A DNA stretch of 39,413 nucleotides from a virus (Duplodnaviria; Heunggongvirae; Uroviricota; Caudoviricetes). The position numbers and the translations under genes are program-made. The stretch lies in IMG/VR virus record IMGVR_UViG_2703718855_000002. One strand, given 5' to 3'. Every line of letters starts with the position of its first letter. Position 1 is the stretch's first letter. The notes beneath the pieces are model-generated. The model saw nothing but the letters and a program-made list of their open reading frames with translations. It ran no database searches and was not told the origin of the DNA. Of the stretch, positions 5,570 through 33,237 are shown piece by piece.

Positions 5570-6154
5570 TTATTGTTTGTTTTTTTCGTTCTGGTTGATG
5601 ACAAATTCAATGTAACTTTCGATCTTTGCTTTCTCGGTTTCAGGTAACAATGCGTAGCGCGAGCGGTCATAGTTGATAGTTGCAGGGTCGTGCGGGTGAA
5701 TCAGTAGTTCATATCCGTGACGCCCGAATGCAGATGCAACATTCTCCAGGGTGGAAATGGAAACGCTGACCTCATTGTTTAACAGGCGGCTGATTGTCAC
5801 CTGGGCGACGCCGGATGCGCGGTGAAGTTTTCCCTGTGTTGAAAGGTCGCGGCTTTCGCTCATCCAGCGTTCCAGGTTGTGAGCCGCCAGCTGACCAATG
5901 TCGCTTGGGCCGACAGGCTGAAAACCTTCCTGAGAAAGCGAGCGATCGATATCAAGCCAGTTACGGGGTTTATTGGCGGCAGCTTCAATTTTTCGCGCAA
6001 CCTGGTCGCCGATAACCTTCTTGCCAAGAGCCCAGCGGTTTACCAGATTTGCCTGAGTTCCAAGTTTTTCAGCCATCCGCGTCTGAACACCATTGAATTC
6101 ACGGTCGATCAAGTCGTTGAGATTTTGCCTGCGGACGTCCTGGATACTTTTCAT
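5570..6154 (-). CDS. Prophage repressor (CI-like, XRE-type HTH, no S24 peptidase domain)
   Basis: 194 aa; N-terminal HTH (TRMAEKLGTQANLVNRWALGKK); divergent from Cro-like gene with palindromic operators on both sides; C-terminal half has a second HTH-like segment (ASGVAQVTISRLLN). Confidence 0.7.
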   Translation of the reverse strand: MKSIQDVRRQNLNDLIDREFNGVQTRMAEKLGTQANLVNRWALGKKVIGDQVARKIEAAANKPRNWLDIDRSLSQEGFQPVGPSDIGQLAAHNLERWMSESRDLSTQGKLHRASGVAQVTISRLLNNEVSVSISTLENVASAFGRHGYELLIHPHDPATINYDRSRYALLPETEKAKIESYIEFVINQNEKNKQ

Positions 6155-11754: not shown

Positions 11755-11769
11755 TTACCACAACGGTAA
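11755..11769. promoter_or_regulatory. Operator-like palindrome TTACCACAACGGTAA
   Basis: Perfect site between terminator and terminase small subunit start. Confidence 0.5.
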
Positions 11770-14516: not shown

Positions 14517-14592
14517 TGGCGTGGCATGCAGGATTCGAACCTGCGACCAACCGCTTAGAAGGCGGTTGCTCTGTCCAACTGAGCTAATGCCA
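14517..14592 (-). tRNA. tRNA-Arg (anticodon UCU)
   Basis: Reverse complement folds as cloverleaf: 7-bp acceptor stem GTGGCAT/ATGCCAC, anticodon loop CUUCUAA, T-arm GGTTCGAATCC, discriminator G, encoded CCA. Confidence 0.85.
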
Positions 14593-14915
14593 CAACGCTG
14601 AGAGCACTTAGCCTGTTAAGGCGCCACATTTTGTCGCGGCTCCATAAATGCTCTCATCGTTGTACCCTCGTCTCTTCCGAGGCGTCACACCGAATCGCCG
14701 GGATGGTGAATCCCCGTGCGCGGAATAAAACCGCTCGACTTGCACATTCCGGCTACCTGGTTCGTTTGCCCGAGCAAGGGAGGGTGCCCCTTAAACGTAT
14801 CCAGACCGCTATCGGCGCATGTGCCATACGCCGTACTGCTCAAAATAAAAGCTCACTCCACCTGTTCAATTTAACGACAAGCCAGTCAGGTTAATAACCG
14901 GAATGAACTCTTTGG

Positions 14916-20727: not shown

Positions 20728-23180
20728 TGGCTATCAGTTGGATCCAGCCCAGCTTTGCCGGTGGTGAGATTGGACCGTCGTTGTACGGTCGTATCGACAT
20801 GGCGAAGTACCAGGTGGCATTGCGCAAGTGCGATAACTTTATCGTGCGGCAGTATGGTGGTGTTGAGAATCGACCTGGTACGCGTTTTGTCGGTGCCGCC
20901 AAATACCCAAATCGGAAATGCCGCCTGATCCCGTTCCAGTTCTCGACGGTTCAGACCTATGCTCTGGAGTTCGGGCACCAGTACATGCGCGTTATCAAAG
21001 ATGGTGCGTTGGTGCTGAACAGCAGCAATGTTATTTATGAAATTGCCACGCCATATACTGAAGCCGATCTGTTCCGAATTAAATTCACGCAAAGCGCCGA
21101 CGTGCTTACGCTGGTTCACCCGGCATACCCGCCGAAAGAGTTGCGCCGCTACGCGCATGACAACTGGCAACTGGTTGATGTGGTAACGAAGAACGGGCCA
21201 TTTGAAGATATCAATATTGACGAGTCAGTGACGGTTTATGCCAGCGCCAGCACCGGGACAATTACGTTAACGGCAAGCGCCTCTATTTTTGGCGCGGAGC
21301 AGGTAGGCAAATTGTTCTATCTGGAACAGCCTGCAGTGGATTCAGTGCCGGTATGGGAAACCAGTAAGAGTACGTCGATTGGCGATATTCGCCGTGCAGA
21401 CAGTAATTACTATCGCGCCGTTACAGCAGGCAAAACAGGCACTTTGCGCCCTTCGCATACAGAAGGCACATCATGGGATGGCTGGGGCGGATCCGGTGAT
21501 GATGATACTGGCATTGAGTGGGAATATCTGCACAGTGGTTTTGGCATTGCCCGTATCACTGCTGCAAATGGCACTACTGCAACTGCTGAGGTGATTTCCT
21601 ATATCCCTTCGCAGGTCGTTGGCGAGGATAATGCCAGCTATAAATGGGCTAAATATGCCTGGAACAGTGTTAATGGTTATCCTGGCACTGTTGTTTATTA
21701 TCAACAACGTCTTTATTTCGCCGCATCGACTGCGTTCCCTCAGACTATCTGGGCCAGCCGTACCGGGGATTATAAGGATTTTGGCAAAAGCAATCCTACG
21801 CAGGATGACGACAGAATTATCTACACCTATGCCGGGCGTCAGGTTAATGAGATCCGCCACCTGATTGATGTCGGTTCGCTGGTGGCACTGACTTCTGGAG
21901 GTGAGTACGTCATCACCGGCGACCAGAACAAAGTGTTAACCCCATCATCATTTGCATTCAGCTCTCAGGGATCAAATGGCTCGAGCAATGTCCCACCAAT
22001 TGCCGTGGCGAATATTGCTCTGTTCGTCCAGGAGAAAGGCAGTGTTGTACGCGATCTGGCCTACTCATTCGATGTTGACGGATATCAGGGGAACGACCTT
22101 ACTATCCTTGCCAATCATCTTTTTCAGAAGCACAGCATTGTTGACTGGTGCTTCTCGATTGTCCCTTACTCCAGCGCCTTCTGCATTCGTGATGATGGTA
22201 AATTACTGGTGATGACCTACTTGCGCGATCAGCAGGTTTTTGCATGGGCACCACAATCCAGTACCGGAAAATATGAAAGCACATGCAGTATCAGCGAAGG
22301 CAATGAAGATGCGGTGTATTTCGTCGTTAACCGAACCGTTAACGGGCAAACAGTGAGATACATCGAGAGACTGTCCAGCCGTTTATTTACCAGCGATGAA
22401 GATGCTTTCTTTGTTGATTCTGGCCTTAGCTATGATGGAAGAAATACGTCTGACAGAACGATGACAATCACTGGTGGTTCTGGCGAATGGGATTACCGCG
22501 CGGAATATACAATCAGTGTTTCTGGTGGTGCGTACTTCACCAGTAGTGATGTTGGTGCACAACTACAGTTCCCTTATACCGGCGATGAAGTGTCAAAAAA
22601 ATTACGTTGCGACATTATTTCTGTAACCAGCACTACTGCTGTAGTGGTTCGTGCTAACAGGAACGTCCCGACATCCCTCAGGGATGTGGGCACCACGAAC
22701 TGGCAAATGGCGCGCCGGACATTTGGAGGCCTGTCTCATCTTGAAGGACAGACCGTAAACATTCTCTCTGATGCTAATGTGGAGCCACAGAAAGTGGTTT
22801 CCGGAGGTGCCGTCACGCTGGAATCACCTGGGGCTGTAGTGCACATCGGCCTGCCAATAACTGCTGAATTCGAAACACTGGATATCAACATTAACGGACA
22901 GGAAACGCTGCTGGACAAAAAACAGGTGATCCCGTCCGTTACTCTGGTTGTGAATGCCAGCCGCGGCATCTGGGCGACTACGCCAGGCGGTAAATGGTAC
23001 GAATATCCACAGCGTGAATTCGAGTTCTACGATGATCCTGTTGATGACGCTACCGGAAAAGTAGAAGTGAAACTGGACAGTAACTGGGGCAAAAACGGAC
23101 GTGTAAGAATCCGTCAGCTTGACCCGTTGCCGCTGTCTGTTCTTGCCGTTATTCCTCGCCTTACTGTTGGGGGATTCTGA
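20727..23180 (+). CDS. Tail tubular protein B (T7 gp12-like)
   Basis: 817 aa; size, position and N-terminal pattern consistent with gp12 family. Confidence 0.65.
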   Translation: MAISWIQPSFAGGEIGPSLYGRIDMAKYQVALRKCDNFIVRQYGGVENRPGTRFVGAAKYPNRKCRLIPFQFSTVQTYALEFGHQYMRVIKDGALVLNSSNVIYEIATPYTEADLFRIKFTQSADVLTLVHPAYPPKELRRYAHDNWQLVDVVTKNGPFEDINIDESVTVYASASTGTITLTASASIFGAEQVGKLFYLEQPAVDSVPVWETSKSTSIGDIRRADSNYYRAVTAGKTGTLRPSHTEGTSWDGWGGSGDDDTGIEWEYLHSGFGIARITAANGTTATAEVISYIPSQVVGEDNASYKWAKYAWNSVNGYPGTVVYYQQRLYFAASTAFPQTIWASRTGDYKDFGKSNPTQDDDRIIYTYAGRQVNEIRHLIDVGSLVALTSGGEYVITGDQNKVLTPSSFAFSSQGSNGSSNVPPIAVANIALFVQEKGSVVRDLAYSFDVDGYQGNDLTILANHLFQKHSIVDWCFSIVPYSSAFCIRDDGKLLVMTYLRDQQVFAWAPQSSTGKYESTCSISEGNEDAVYFVVNRTVNGQTVRYIERLSSRLFTSDEDAFFVDSGLSYDGRNTSDRTMTITGGSGEWDYRAEYTISVSGGAYFTSSDVGAQLQFPYTGDEVSKKLRCDIISVTSTTAVVVRANRNVPTSLRDVGTTNWQMARRTFGGLSHLEGQTVNILSDANVEPQKVVSGGAVTLESPGAVVHIGLPITAEFETLDININGQETLLDKKQVIPSVTLVVNASRGIWATTPGGKWYEYPQREFEFYDDPVDDATGKVEVKLDSNWGKNGRVRIRQLDPLPLSVLAVIPRLTVGGF

Positions 23181-23644
23181 TGATCGATGTTCGAATTATT
23201 CCCGCTACCGAAGAGCATCTTCAGATGATTTTGCCGGATGTTCGTCAGGCTGATATTGACGAACTGTATGCGGTATCACTGATGACTACCGAAGATGCGC
23301 TGCGTGTTGGTCTGCGTACTGCGACTATGGCCTGGTCAGGATTTGCGAACGGAGAACCGGTAACCATGTTTGGCATATCTCCGGCGTCAATGATCGGTGG
23401 CAATGGTACGCCCTGGCTGGTCGGAACCAGCCGTATCGAAAAATATCAGAAGACATTTCTTCGCCACTGCCGCCCTGTATTGCAGCAGATGCTGGCAGTT
23501 TATCCGCGCCTGGAAAACTATGTCGACGAGCGAAACCATGTTGCCAAAGCATGGCTGCACTGGCTTGGATTCAGGCTTGAAGAAGCCGCGCCTTATGGTG
23601 CTCTTGGTCTTAATTTCCACAGATTTCACATGGAGAGAAAATAA
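23180..23644 (+). CDS. Internal virion protein (gp13-position)
   Basis: 154-aa ORF directly after tail tube B, overlapping stop/start. Confidence 0.4.
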   Translation: MIDVRIIPATEEHLQMILPDVRQADIDELYAVSLMTTEDALRVGLRTATMAWSGFANGEPVTMFGISPASMIGGNGTPWLVGTSRIEKYQKTFLRHCRPVLQQMLAVYPRLENYVDERNHVAKAWLHWLGFRLEEAAPYGALGLNFHRFHMERK

Positions 23645-31149: not shown

Positions 31150-31175
31150 AGGCCGCTTTCGCGGCCTTGTTTTTA
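31150..31175 (+). terminator. Rho-independent terminator ending the internal-virion-protein operon
   Basis: AGGCCGC-TTTC-GCGGCCT hairpin followed by TGTTTTT. Confidence 0.65.
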
Positions 31176-31334
31176 ACGAATGCCACCTCCGCCCGGGCGA
31201 GAATCCGCAGAACGCCCACCGCAGCGGGAGCCGTCAGCGGCAGTATCGCTGTCGTGCTGACAACGACCGGCAAAGGCCTGAGTTGAAGCTACCAGAGACA
31301 ACAAAACGAACAGTGCAGCAAATGCTTTTTTCAT
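31173..31334 (-). CDS. Small secreted peptide (53 aa; Sec signal peptide, 2 Cys, Gly-rich mature part)
   Basis: MKKAFAALFVLLSLVASTQAFA then GRCQHDSDTAADGSRCGGRSADSRPGGGGIR; own promoter TTGACG-16-TATAGA at 31375..31348; no strong SD. Confidence 0.4.
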   Translation of the reverse strand: MKKAFAALFVLLSLVASTQAFAGRCQHDSDTAADGSRCGGRSADSRPGGGGIR

Positions 31335-31347
31335 TGTGAAATTTCCA

Positions 31348-31375
31348 TCTATAAGCCACCTCAATGTGGCGTCAA
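31348..31375 (-). promoter_or_regulatory. sigma70-like promoter for small secreted peptide gene
   Basis: -35 TTGACG (31375..31370), 16-bp spacer, -10 TATAGA (31353..31348) on minus strand. Confidence 0.45.
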
Positions 31376-31404
31376 TGAGTGTAGCACTGACTTTTGTTTC
31401 GTCC

Positions 31405-31428
31405 ACAAAAAAGCCCGCGCTGCGGGCT
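31405..31428 (-). terminator. Rho-independent terminator after 210-aa gene
   Basis: Minus-strand hairpin GCCCGC-AGC-GCGGGC followed by TTTTTT, 5 nt after stop. Confidence 0.6.
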
Positions 31429-31432
31429 TCTA

Positions 31433-32065
31433 TTAATGCAGTTTATCTTTGCTTATAACCAGTAGTCTGTGGGTATGCACATCTTTATCACTGCCCCAAC
31501 AGAAATCAGCCCACTGGCTATAGAAATCATCCCATGATGTCATGAAGCTAAGAGGTCTATCTTCTTCAGAGCCATCTGAAACGTATACATTATATCCCGG
31601 GGTGTTTATAGCCCAAGAAATCATTCTTTCCCAGAATCTTCTCCCATCGATTGTTTGTTGCTCATCAGATACAACAATCGCATATTGCTCTAGGAAGAAC
31701 TGAAAAAAAATCTGAGGCAAACCATGAACAGCACGGTCATGAATAACATTAGGCGTACGCCATACCATGATCTGCGTACATGTTCTTTTGGCTTCGACGA
31801 TATCTTCCCGAAAGATTAACTTAACCGCATACACCGTTTCTGGAGTATCGCTGGTAGTAATCATTCTGTAATGATCGCCATTACAAGATTTTACAAGGCG
31901 ATAACCATAAGGTGTTGTGAATCCCGGAAGAACGAAATCAACCACACCTTTCGCTAAGTAGCTTTCGGTGTGACTAGTGTTCTTCTCAGACATGTTCAGT
32001 TTTCTATCGAAATCTGCTTCTGGGATAATGTATGGCATCGCTTTTCTTGTTGTATTTGTTCTCAT
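31433..32065 (-). CDS. Hypothetical protein, no recognisable family (moron; candidate accessory/exclusion function)
   Basis: 210 aa, Trp-rich and acidic; strong SD GGGAGGA; own operator-bearing promoter region and own terminator. Confidence 0.55.
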   Translation of the reverse strand: MRTNTTRKAMPYIIPEADFDRKLNMSEKNTSHTESYLAKGVVDFVLPGFTTPYGYRLVKSCNGDHYRMITTSDTPETVYAVKLIFREDIVEAKRTCTQIMVWRTPNVIHDRAVHGLPQIFFQFFLEQYAIVVSDEQQTIDGRRFWERMISWAINTPGYNVYVSDGSEEDRPLSFMTSWDDFYSQWADFCWGSDKDVHTHRLLVISKDKLH

Positions 32066-32124
32066 TTCGTCCTCCCATGTTTGGCTACAGGACGCGTTTT
32101 GAAGGGAAGATTAAAAATGCTTTC

Positions 32125-32139
32125 TTACCCTTGAGGTAA
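32125..32139. promoter_or_regulatory. Operator-like palindrome TTACCCTTGAGGTAA
   Basis: Perfect site 60-74 bp upstream of ATG of 210-aa gene. Confidence 0.5.
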
Positions 32140-32211
32140 TAGTACGCTATTCACCCCCAGTCTGCAATCTGTACAGAATTATTTAAAGGCACATCCCTGT
32201 GCCGCCGCCCG

Positions 32212-32922
32212 TCAGAAGAACCCAGCCTTGTCGTTGATGTACTCCGCGTGCGTCTGGATATCACGCAGGCATTTGCTCACACCGACGATGTAGCAGAACA
32301 TGGTGGTCAGTTCCGCCGCCGCGCCCGATACGTCGTGCCCGTCTTCCTGTAACTGGTTTAGCAGATTCATCAGCAGTGAGCTCTCCGTCAGGCCGAGAAC
32401 ACCAGACGGCGAATGAATCAGGCTACGGTAGCCTGGCTTCAGTGGGGCACTGTAGGTTTTGTTCTCTATCTTCATTGCCTGCATCACTGCTGATGCTGTG
32501 GCGTTGGCTACCTGGTCGGCAACCATCTTTATGCGTTCTTCCTGCGGGAGCGAGTTTTTAATGTAACTTCCGGTGCGGCGGATCTGAGGAAGAACCTCAC
32601 CTGTAACCCATTTACGAAAGCGGTAGGGGATAGTGCCTGGTGTCACCGCATCGCGGCAGCGGAGGATCAGTGTGTAGAGGCCTGACTCGGAGATGATGTT
32701 GATCTCTTTTACTCGGCTATCAAAAATTGCACGATGTTCATGCCCTATGTTGAACATAGACCTTTCATCATCATCCAGTTTTTCAAGTGATTGGGTGACG
32801 TTTTGGATACGCAGCGCACTACAAACGTCTTGGGCTACAAACCATGGTTGGCCATCGATAATGATGGAACGGATAGGGTTAACAGATTCAAATTTGAAGA
32901 TGGCAGTTTGAGCATTAGCCAT
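32212..32922 (-). CDS. Antirepressor (N-terminal Bro-N domain)
   Basis: FKFESVNPIRSIIIDGQPWFVAQDVCSALRI matches Bro-N; C-terminal 60 aa paralogous to product of 33238..33495; ATG 32922 with SD GGAGA. Confidence 0.7.
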   Translation of the reverse strand: MANAQTAIFKFESVNPIRSIIIDGQPWFVAQDVCSALRIQNVTQSLEKLDDDERSMFNIGHEHRAIFDSRVKEINIISESGLYTLILRCRDAVTPGTIPYRFRKWVTGEVLPQIRRTGSYIKNSLPQEERIKMVADQVANATASAVMQAMKIENKTYSAPLKPGYRSLIHSPSGVLGLTESSLLMNLLNQLQEDGHDVSGAAAELTTMFCYIVGVSKCLRDIQTHAEYINDKAGFF

Positions 32923-33077
32923 GGTGGTTATCTCCACTTAGTGATTTTAATCACCACCGCAACGCCAATTACTGGTGGTGAACTGGACAAGGTTGGCGTA
33001 CCGGCCTAAGTGGTACCGGCGTCCTTTCGGACCCCTGCCCAGCCCACCATAATTCGGATATGGCTGTGTTTAACGCA

Positions 33078-33101
33078 TAAAAAAACCACGTCTGGCGTGG
33101 T
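33078..33101 (-). terminator. Rho-independent terminator downstream of small antirepressor-like gene
   Basis: Minus-strand hairpin ACCACG-CCAGA-CGTGGT followed by TTTTTTT. Confidence 0.5.
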
Positions 33102-33191
33102 ATGCGCCACTTAGTAACTCGGGACGCCAATCCCGGCACTGGATTTTGCCAGTGCCCGATTACTATGGCACAAGAGGAGTGCGATGTAAAT

Positions 33192-33206
33192 TTACCGCAA
33201 AGGTAA
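33192..33206. promoter_or_regulatory. Operator-like palindrome TTACCGCAAAGGTAA
   Basis: Perfect site in the 300-bp region between the two antirepressor-like genes. Confidence 0.5.
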
Positions 33207-33237
33207 ATATAAGCACTCATCTTGGTAATTTCAAATC

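Follow-up and report, generated by a model that had tools for sequence, protein, structure and literature searches.

An exchangeable slot gene beneath a candidate repressor operator encodes a predicted divergent GNAT-like protein in an Escherichia coli Uetakevirus prophage

Several described systems resemble parts of the locus analysed here. Lambdoid morons such as bor and lom are promoter-gene-terminator units, and phage P1 combines dispersed C1 operators with the immI c4-ant module, to which we draw a functional analogy. Small single-gene phage GNATs that act on host targets are also known: AcrVA5 is an anti-CRISPR acetyltransferase, and Rac of phiKMV-like phages is said to be an effector of this kind acting during infection. 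The Mom protein of phage Mu is a divergent GNAT-fold DNA-modification enzyme that is very tightly controlled and encoded at the edge of the structural block (PMC7261163). Against this background we analysed a minus-strand gene for a 210-amino-acid (aa) protein in a 39,413-nucleotide (nt) stretch of viral DNA (IMG/VR record IMGVR_UViG_2703718855_000002; hereafter the window, numbered from its first letter), which an earlier note, written from the letters alone, had described as a self-contained moron. Our preferred reading, to which we assign a probability of roughly 45%, is that the gene is a horizontally exchanged, promoter-to-terminator slot cargo whose product would be a repressor-gated, lytic-phase, divergent GNAT-like protein that binds acyl-coenzyme A (acyl-CoA) and acylates, or at least binds, a molecule of the host or of a competitor.

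The window represents a phiV10/epsilon15-like (Uetakevirus) prophage of E. coli, complete and permuted. Because 32.6 of its 39.4 kb align to phiV10, at 82-98% identity and with the integrase at the start, its gene order is epsilon15/phiV10-like and not T7-like, as had been proposed. By blastn, the flanks common to the TL-2011b and phiv142-3 prophages stop at 31428, inside the terminator stem, and resume at 32125, the last base of the operator. The gene and its immediate signals occupy the following positions.

31429 to 32124, minus strand: the only cargo-specific DNA, by comparison with the TL-2011b and phiv142-3 prophages, which have both flanks in common with the window
31433 to 32065, minus strand: open reading frame (ORF) of the 210-aa protein (WP_001260052.1; PHROG 1349; predicted divergent GNAT-like fold)
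32070 to 32076, minus strand: Shine-Dalgarno sequence GGGAGGA, 4 nt 5′ of the ATG, with a core invariant in upstream alignments
32077 to 32124, minus strand: cargo-specific 5′ leader, with an ACGTCC...CAGCCAAACAT block kept in the homologues of lambdoid phage LLS, Enterobacter and Klebsiella
31407 to 31430, minus strand: predicted intrinsic terminator, GAAGCCCGC-AGC-GCGGGCUUU plus a U-run, from its fold and homologous contexts; up to 31428 it lies within the flank common to prophages with other cargos
32124 to 32140, no strand assigned: operator copy ATTACC-TCAAG-GGTAAG, of the form annotated in epsilon15, with its core at 32125-32139, at the junction of flank and cargo
32139 to 32144, minus strand: candidate -10 hexamer TACTAT, abutting the operator, from the alignment; below scan threshold
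32162 to 32167, minus strand: candidate -35 hexamer TTGCAG, which we infer 17 nt upstream of the -10

The slot delimited in this way has a Bro-N antirepressor gene on one side and the gene of a small membrane protein on the other. Its contents vary among prophages, in keeping with the accessory hotspot that the earlier note had recognized beside an antirepressor. TL-2011b carries a 59-aa ORF and a YafO-family toxin here, EC.W1-9 a 108-aa ORF and a DUF2335 membrane protein, and phiv142-3 two tiny ORFs; in phiV10 the slot is empty and the 210-aa gene is absent. The slot flanks are found in 566 of 5426 complete E. coli genomes (~10%), with annotated cargos that include YafO, DUF4760 and DUF2335. 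The 210-aa gene itself occurs in 93 of these genomes, among them APEC O1 and ST131, always at an identity of at least 99%. In an alignment of six slots, TTACC-N5-GGTAA is invariant despite differing cargos and spacers, and divergence sets in immediately past GGTAA. The repeat is abutted at the slot by a -10-like hexamer, which is TACTAT in the window and in LLS, TAAAAT in EC.W1-9 and TATATT in Klebsiella.

By these comparisons, the 210-aa gene is a swappable cargo in a variable slot, and the candidate promoter-operator and predicted terminator belong to that slot in E. coli Uetakevirus prophages rather than being private to the gene. The earlier idea of a self-contained unit survives to the extent that one gene, with promoter-like, operator and terminator sequences on its two sides, recurs in unrelated backbones; the notion of a promoter-operator and terminator of its own does not, as these are slot-shared. 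With its sharp operator and terminator borders and its small set of alternative payloads, the slot offers a natural place for mining and comparing accessory functions.

The inverted repeat at the upstream border lies 60-75 nt from the gene and reads ATTACC-TCAAG-GGTAAG (32140-32124). The repeat had been reported as a symmetric ATTACC-N5-GGTAAT site, a 6+6 form that the actual sequence, ending in GGTAAG, does not have: it is perfect only as a 5+5 TTACC-N5-GGTAA and matches the longer form at 11 of 12 arm positions. Taken alone, such a repeat could have arisen by chance. Across the window, the TTACC-N5-GGTAA motif is present in 10 perfect and 4 one-mismatch copies, a total of 14 where 0.71 would be expected and a number reached in none of 100 shuffles.

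5436, 5498, 6210, 6258, 6595, 8541, 8603, 11755, 11773, 14916, 32125, 33192, 33572 and 36217: 15-bp operator sites found by the window motif scan

Almost all copies are intergenic, marking nearly all intergenic or promoter regions of the genome, and they cluster on both sides of the repressor gene, with two to its left (5436, 5498) and two or three between it and the divergent cro-like gene (6210, 6258). Others lie ahead of the replication and lysis genes, the terminase, the tailspike, the portal region and the antirepressor module. phiV10 has 14 sites at homologous positions, with arms kept and spacers changed, and the GenBank record of epsilon15 (NC_004775.2) annotates seven 17-bp ATTACC-N5-GGTAAT sites as 'protein_bind: repressor (lysogeny)'. 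In its perfect core, its arm positions and its genome-wide repetition, the site at 32124-32140 fits this epsilon15-type operator. What had been taken for the gene's own operator is instead one copy of a repressor-type motif dispersed through the whole phage genome.

The trans-acting factor at these sites is presumed to be the prophage repressor, a homologue of phiV10 gp40. In phage ZX5, over-expressing the identical phiV10-type repressor shuts off transcription of the lytic genes, in a study that does not define the operator (PMC9782041). Annotation and comparison together suggest that a repressor operator at 32125-32139 overlaps the candidate slot promoter in its -10/+1 region; the lysogen would then probably keep the cargo silent, with expression following once immunity is lifted. 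Repression in the lysogen with expression in the lytic phase would probably be the opposite of what is usually meant by a moron. We also considered the repeat as an MqsA palindrome (ACCT-N3-AGGT), because an MqsA domain is fused to one relative. This reading was rejected: the pattern fits phiv142-3 alone, and the positions concerned fall in the variable spacer.

We envisage the following course of events. The slot sits just downstream of what resembles an immI-like module, with a repressor-controlled promoter, a C4-type RNA and the Bro-N gene, and would itself provide a weak sigma-70-like candidate promoter, whose -10 abuts one of the dispersed operator copies, together with a strong terminator. 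In the lysogen, the prophage repressor would occupy the operator and keep the cargo off. Upon induction or fresh infection, the gene would be transcribed leftward as an early, immunity-controlled function.

The ORF, ribosome-binding site, hairpin and upstream repeat of the earlier note are all real. The ORF starts with ATG and follows the strong Shine-Dalgarno sequence that the note had described. Aligned upstream regions of five further phage contexts all keep the core GGAGGAC, in support of M1 as the start codon. Downstream of the TAA stop, GCCCGC-AGC-GCGGGC followed by T6 (31427-31407) forms the tight intrinsic terminator that had been noticed there; it begins 2-5 nt past the stop, and its stem can be extended from 31430, to as many as ten pairs. 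The predicted fold has an energy of -15.3 kcal/mol (z = -3.0), and 1 of 200 shuffles was equally good. A consensus terminator scan missed this structure, probably because the extended stem takes up part of the T-run. A hairpin in the leader that would sequester the Shine-Dalgarno sequence (32057-32129, minus strand; CUUCCC or ACGUCC pairing with it) has no statistical backing, its minimum free energy of -15.3 kcal/mol corresponding to a z of only -1.5 and the five homologous leaders showing zero compensatory changes.

The base composition of the gene is foreign, with a G+C content of 40.8% for the ORF and cargo versus 49.4% for the whole window, and positions 31196-32200 have no counterpart in phiV10, in line with the earlier view of an inserted gene. 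The joint shows a short GCCNCC..CCGCCCG microhomology. We observed a short direct microhomology, GCCACCTCCGCCCG plus GCCGCCGCCCG, at 31183-31196 and 32199-32211, the ends of the segment that phiV10 lacks, which suggests that the insertion or deletion of this segment arose via recombination at the microhomology repeat.

The 210-aa product has a mass of 24.6 kDa, is hydrophilic and is inferred to be cytoplasmic. Its description as Trp-rich and acidic applies only mildly (2.9% Trp, isoelectric point 5.97). It matches PHROG 1349 (function unknown) over its full length (E = 3e-113, residues 1-210 against profile positions 1-210), as do all 90 diverse relatives that we collected, and PHROG 3307 (function unknown) weakly. 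The family comprises 63 close homologues of ~210 aa across Enterobacterales, and a profile search extended it to 894 clusters (50% identity), of which 254 scored below 1e-10. Motifs found family-wide are TQxxVWR, SDxxQTxxGxRFW, VYxxD and WG, and the invariant residues include Q98, D134, T138, R143, F144, D164, W185, G191 and R200 (protein numbering).

A likeness to GNATs appears in the predicted structure. The AlphaFold2 model (mean pLDDT 80.5, pTM 0.77) suggests a C-terminal half ordered beta4-alpha3-beta5-alpha4-beta6 and has a divergent N-terminal half of four strands followed by two helices. In a Foldseek search of the PDB, the top 50 matches are almost all GNATs, none of them below 1e-3; in BFVD, the best matches are uncharacterised phage proteins (E ~1e-8, TM ~0.7), followed by viral NAT_SF and acyl-CoA N-acyltransferase entries. 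The conserved motifs map to beta4-alpha3 and beta5, and SDxxQTxxGxRFW falls at what would be the position of the GNAT CoA-pyrophosphate loop. The model thus points to a protein that is GNAT-like but divergent and that belongs to a large uncharacterised family, a GNAT assignment that is fold-level only because the profile-profile comparisons were negative. The earlier statement that no motif could be assigned holds for sequence, in that no sequence family of known function was found, but not for predicted structure. Homology searching and structure prediction, which the earlier note had proposed as checks, gave different answers: the profile comparisons were negative, and AlphaFold2 with Foldseek returned the GNAT-like fold.

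Building on this model, the product would most likely bind acyl-CoA through the C-terminal half that bears SDxxQTxxGxRFW, and would most likely acylate, or at least bind, a host or competitor molecule to the benefit of phage growth, by host takeover or counter-defence. We hold with moderate to low confidence that it is an immunity-gated, accessory, acyltransferase-like protein acting in lytic growth.

The gene is not confined to Uetakeviruses. In lambdoid phage LLS and Enterobacter prophages, the homologue is flanked by the spanin genes and the gene of the small terminase; in Serratia siphovirus-type prophages it is a single gene between the tail-chaperone and tape-measure genes; and in Citrobacter P1-like elements it separates baseplate genes from sit and lies on the opposite strand. 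A Klebsiella epsilon15-like prophage carries one as well. Every homologous context has a hairpin and T-run 3′ of the stop, and the closest relatives keep the -10, operator, leader and Shine-Dalgarno block. LLS (PQ299149.1) has one perfect operator in its 42.9 kb, at 42053-42067, 87 nt upstream of its copy of the gene. The related Enterobacter prophages likewise have exactly one perfect Uetakevirus-type operator genome-wide, again 87 nt ahead of their copy. An operator motif was present within 250 nt upstream in 12 of 82 homologue loci, where ~1 would be expected. From these arrangements, it seems that the gene took its candidate promoter-operator along when it moved out of a Uetakevirus-type slot. 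A co-resident phiV10-like prophage could, in principle, repress the copy in a lambdoid phage.

Homologue loci were located with the closer alignment, the 90-sequence distant alignment being too divergent for that step. Among the 249 neighbours of 64 homologue loci, which fall into 129 clusters, no conserved partner gene was found. Many family members are solitary chromosomal genes, for instance between bamC and purC in Providencia. In the Enterobacter/Leclercia clade, and also in Silvania, the family member is convergent with an nfsB-like nitroreductase gene at a position conserved across genera. Because such solitary copies hold conserved positions among housekeeping genes across genera, the family is not phage-restricted. 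Distant members lie in virulent-phage-like contigs among early and nucleotide-metabolism genes (thymidylate synthase, dihydrofolate reductase, SbcC-like), and these count towards a lytic-phase role.

Two fusion variants were observed. One (locus L014, 4823-6080) joins an SRA_ScoMcrA domain to the family domain and is preceded by an overlapping Phd/YefM antitoxin gene; the other (locus L013, 1519-2262) joins an MqsA-type zinc-ribbon N-terminus to the family domain. They hint at toxin-antitoxin-like or modified-DNA-sensing contexts.

Several results weigh against the reading of the gene as repressor-gated cargo encoding a GNAT-like protein. On the side of regulation, the slot promoter is weak (TTGCAG-17-TACTAT, 7/12) and no promoter scored above the scan threshold; with a promoter this weak by consensus, read-through from the Bro-N operon is possible. 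Our literature search turned up no operator-binding experiment, the epsilon15 sites being a record annotation, and searches on the Uetakevirus operator found nothing relevant. Furthermore, with many members chromosomal among housekeeping genes, the function need not be phage-specific.

On the side of the protein, a Pfam GNAT match was found in 0 of the 90 members, among which there was no Pfam match of any kind; PF00583- and PF13508-type GNAT profiles, in particular, were matched neither by the 210-aa protein nor by these relatives. The 210-aa protein gave zero matches in Pfam, NCBIfam, PADLOC and PDB sequences (phmmer and profile), and a search of PDB sequences with the family profile yielded nothing. 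In hhalign comparisons, the profile of the 90 sequences reached probabilities below 2% against RimI, a viral GNAT and Mu Mom; RimI was used both as a single sequence and as a 16-sequence profile, which is a weak test, the profile being shallow with all relatives at 80% identity or above. In addition, the loop at the motif A position reads TxxGxR, against the canonical Q/RxxGxG/A, with the Gly conserved and T and R flanking it. On function, literature searches gave nothing, whether for the accession of the protein, for its PHROG number or for the phage LLS paper.

Among the alternatives, a classical moron would have its own promoter active in the repressed prophage and would endow the lysogen with superinfection exclusion, anti-phage defence or host modulation. 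The promoter-gene-terminator anatomy, the foreign G+C content and the insertion between structural genes are all consistent with this view, as is the YafO toxin module that the slot alternately holds. The copies in LLS and Enterobacter occupy the lambda-type moron site next to cos, single-gene chromosomal copies exist, and the operator in LLS is an orphan, so that nothing in LLS is expected to repress the gene. We nonetheless consider a classical moron unlikely. Its -10/+1 region would be overlapped by an immunity-region motif annotated as a repressor site in epsilon15, PADLOC models give only weak, scattered matches among the 90 members, and relatives are found in virulent-phage-like contigs. 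The role in defence or superinfection exclusion favoured earlier finds no support here: PADLOC-DB 2.0 gave no match for the 210-aa protein and only single weak, scattered ones among its 90 relatives, and a conserved partner gene is absent. As for activity in the lysogen, the operator over the candidate promoter points to repression instead; this argues against moron behaviour but is not proof.

It is similarly doubtful that the GNAT-like scaffold is non-catalytic and acts by binding, for example by inhibiting a host or defence protein, by serving as its decoy or by sensing acyl-CoA. The non-canonical TxxGxR equivalent of motif A, the absence of a GNAT signal at the sequence level and the divergent N-terminal half would fit a scaffold that has lost catalysis. 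Yet conservation across this very wide family is strong at D134, T138, G141, R143, D164, Q98 and W102-R103, where the cofactor and the active site would be expected, and these conserved polar residues look more like an active site than a binding surface.

A growth-arresting, toxin-like GNAT, for example one that acylates aminoacyl-tRNA as TacT, AtaT and KacT do and that is silenced by the repressor until induction or abortive infection, is very unlikely: the distant SRA_ScoMcrA fusion with its overlapping Phd/YefM gene, the fusion to the MqsA antitoxin zinc ribbon and the YafO toxin in the same slot of other prophages speak for it, but no small partner is conserved among the neighbours clustered above, the 146-nt upstream gap contains no ORF and the next gene downstream follows only after the terminator, solitary copies on the chromosome are kept stably throughout the genera of the Enterobacter clade, and toxins are not the best structural matches.

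The surroundings of the slot bear on its proposed control by immunity. On the minus strand, from 33.2 kb downwards, the order is an operator-bearing promoter-like site, isrK, C4 RNA, the Bro-N gene, a 146-nt gap that holds the candidate promoter and operator, the 210-aa gene, the terminator and a 53-aa gene. The operator-bearing promoter, C4-type RNA and Bro-N gene look like a module for antirepressor control of the P1/P7 immI kind, here in the prophage of a podovirus. The neighbouring features and the repressor gene are as follows.

33192 to 33234, minus strand: promoter-like site TTGAAA-17-TATATT (10/12) upstream of the RNA/antirepressor module, with an operator copy at 33192-33206
33079 to 33155, minus strand: isrK-like Hfq-binding RNA (Rfam gathering-level match, 67 bits)
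32971 to 33054, minus strand: C4 antisense RNA (Rfam gathering-level match, 66 bits)
32212 to 32922, minus strand: Bro-N domain (antirepressor-type) gene, the upstream neighbour, with a weak hairpin downstream at ~32181-32196
31173 to 31334, minus strand: 53-aa membrane-anchored protein (WP_000708858.1), the downstream neighbour, part of the conserved slot flank; its gene has its own promoter-like site
5570 to 6154, minus strand: prophage repressor gene (194 aa), homologue of phiV10 gp40 with two helix-turn-helix motifs, with operator clusters on either side (5436/5498 and 6210/6258)

Elsewhere in the window, we observed a tRNA-Arg gene (anticodon tct; 14517-14593, minus strand) with the terminase region on one side and the portal region on the other; it runs opposite to the structural genes. 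At 23180-23644 on the plus strand lies a homologue of the epsilon15 internal virion protein gp13, for which the epsilon15 record lists an HHpred match to a GNAT acetyltransferase (3fbu); the phage would then encode two GNAT-like proteins that are unrelated to each other, this second one possibly injected. The small terminase gene has its phiV10-type TTG start (11709) upstream of the tandem operators at 11755 and 11773, with an ATG after them at ~11788. In epsilon15, the small terminase start is annotated downstream of its operator site, and the phiV10-type start is probably too far upstream.

The gene is a concrete candidate that is cheap to test, reasonable if not exceptional, from a family that is frequent among phages and Enterobacterales and for which no function has been described. 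If the gene is repressor-gated, its effects belong to induction or infection and not only to the resting lysogen, which bears on the design of assays. As a more far-reaching conjecture, which we regard as quite unlikely, PHROG 1349 could be a large undescribed enzyme family, derived from GNATs and shared by phages and bacteria, that acylates a new class of target, such as a host defence or transcription-translation component or, as with Mom, nucleic acid. Among Uetakeviruses it would then figure as one exchangeable payload among several in a repressor-gated 'cargo socket' beside the antirepressor, fired when immunity lifts. With the operator travelling with the cassette into lambdoid phages, the repressor of one prophage could, on this conjecture, control a gene of another.

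An accessory cargo gene and a GNAT-fold protein are both known kinds, so the locus adds no new category and overturns no current idea. Its predicted product appears to resemble the GNAT superfamily (NatD/Naa40, Naa50, RimI) in the modelled beta4-alpha3-beta5-alpha4-beta6 half and in a conserved Gly loop at the alpha3 N-terminus, and GNATs dominate three independent structure searches; it differs in lacking a sequence or profile match, in the order of its N-terminal strands and helices and in the TxxGxR loop. Rac and AcrVA5 match ordinary GNAT profiles, whereas the PHROG 1349 family does not. Like Mu Mom (PF25680), it is a phage accessory protein in the range of ~210-240 aa whose GNAT fold is visible by structure prediction only; unlike Mom, the gene has no Com-like partner and the protein no basic C-terminal tail. 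Membership of the Mom family was rejected (hhalign probability 0.2%, no PF25680 match; Mu Mom itself, 2.4e-75). The type II toxins TacT, AtaT and KacT are fold-level matches, and the slot hosts a toxin module in other prophages, but the 210-aa gene has no adjacent antitoxin.

At the level of gene organization, the locus shares with lambdoid morons a single gene with a terminator, a foreign G+C content, absence from close relatives and a position between conserved genes. It departs from them in that its candidate promoter bears a phage repressor-type operator and in that promoter and terminator are shared features of the slot. The P1 operator is asymmetric and unrelated in sequence to that of the window, whereas the order of the P1 immI region, with a C4-type RNA preceding an antirepressor gene, recurs here. 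For the operator, the likeness is to epsilon15, where seven annotated sites take the 17-bp ATTACC-N5-GGTAAT form also seen ahead of the 210-aa gene.

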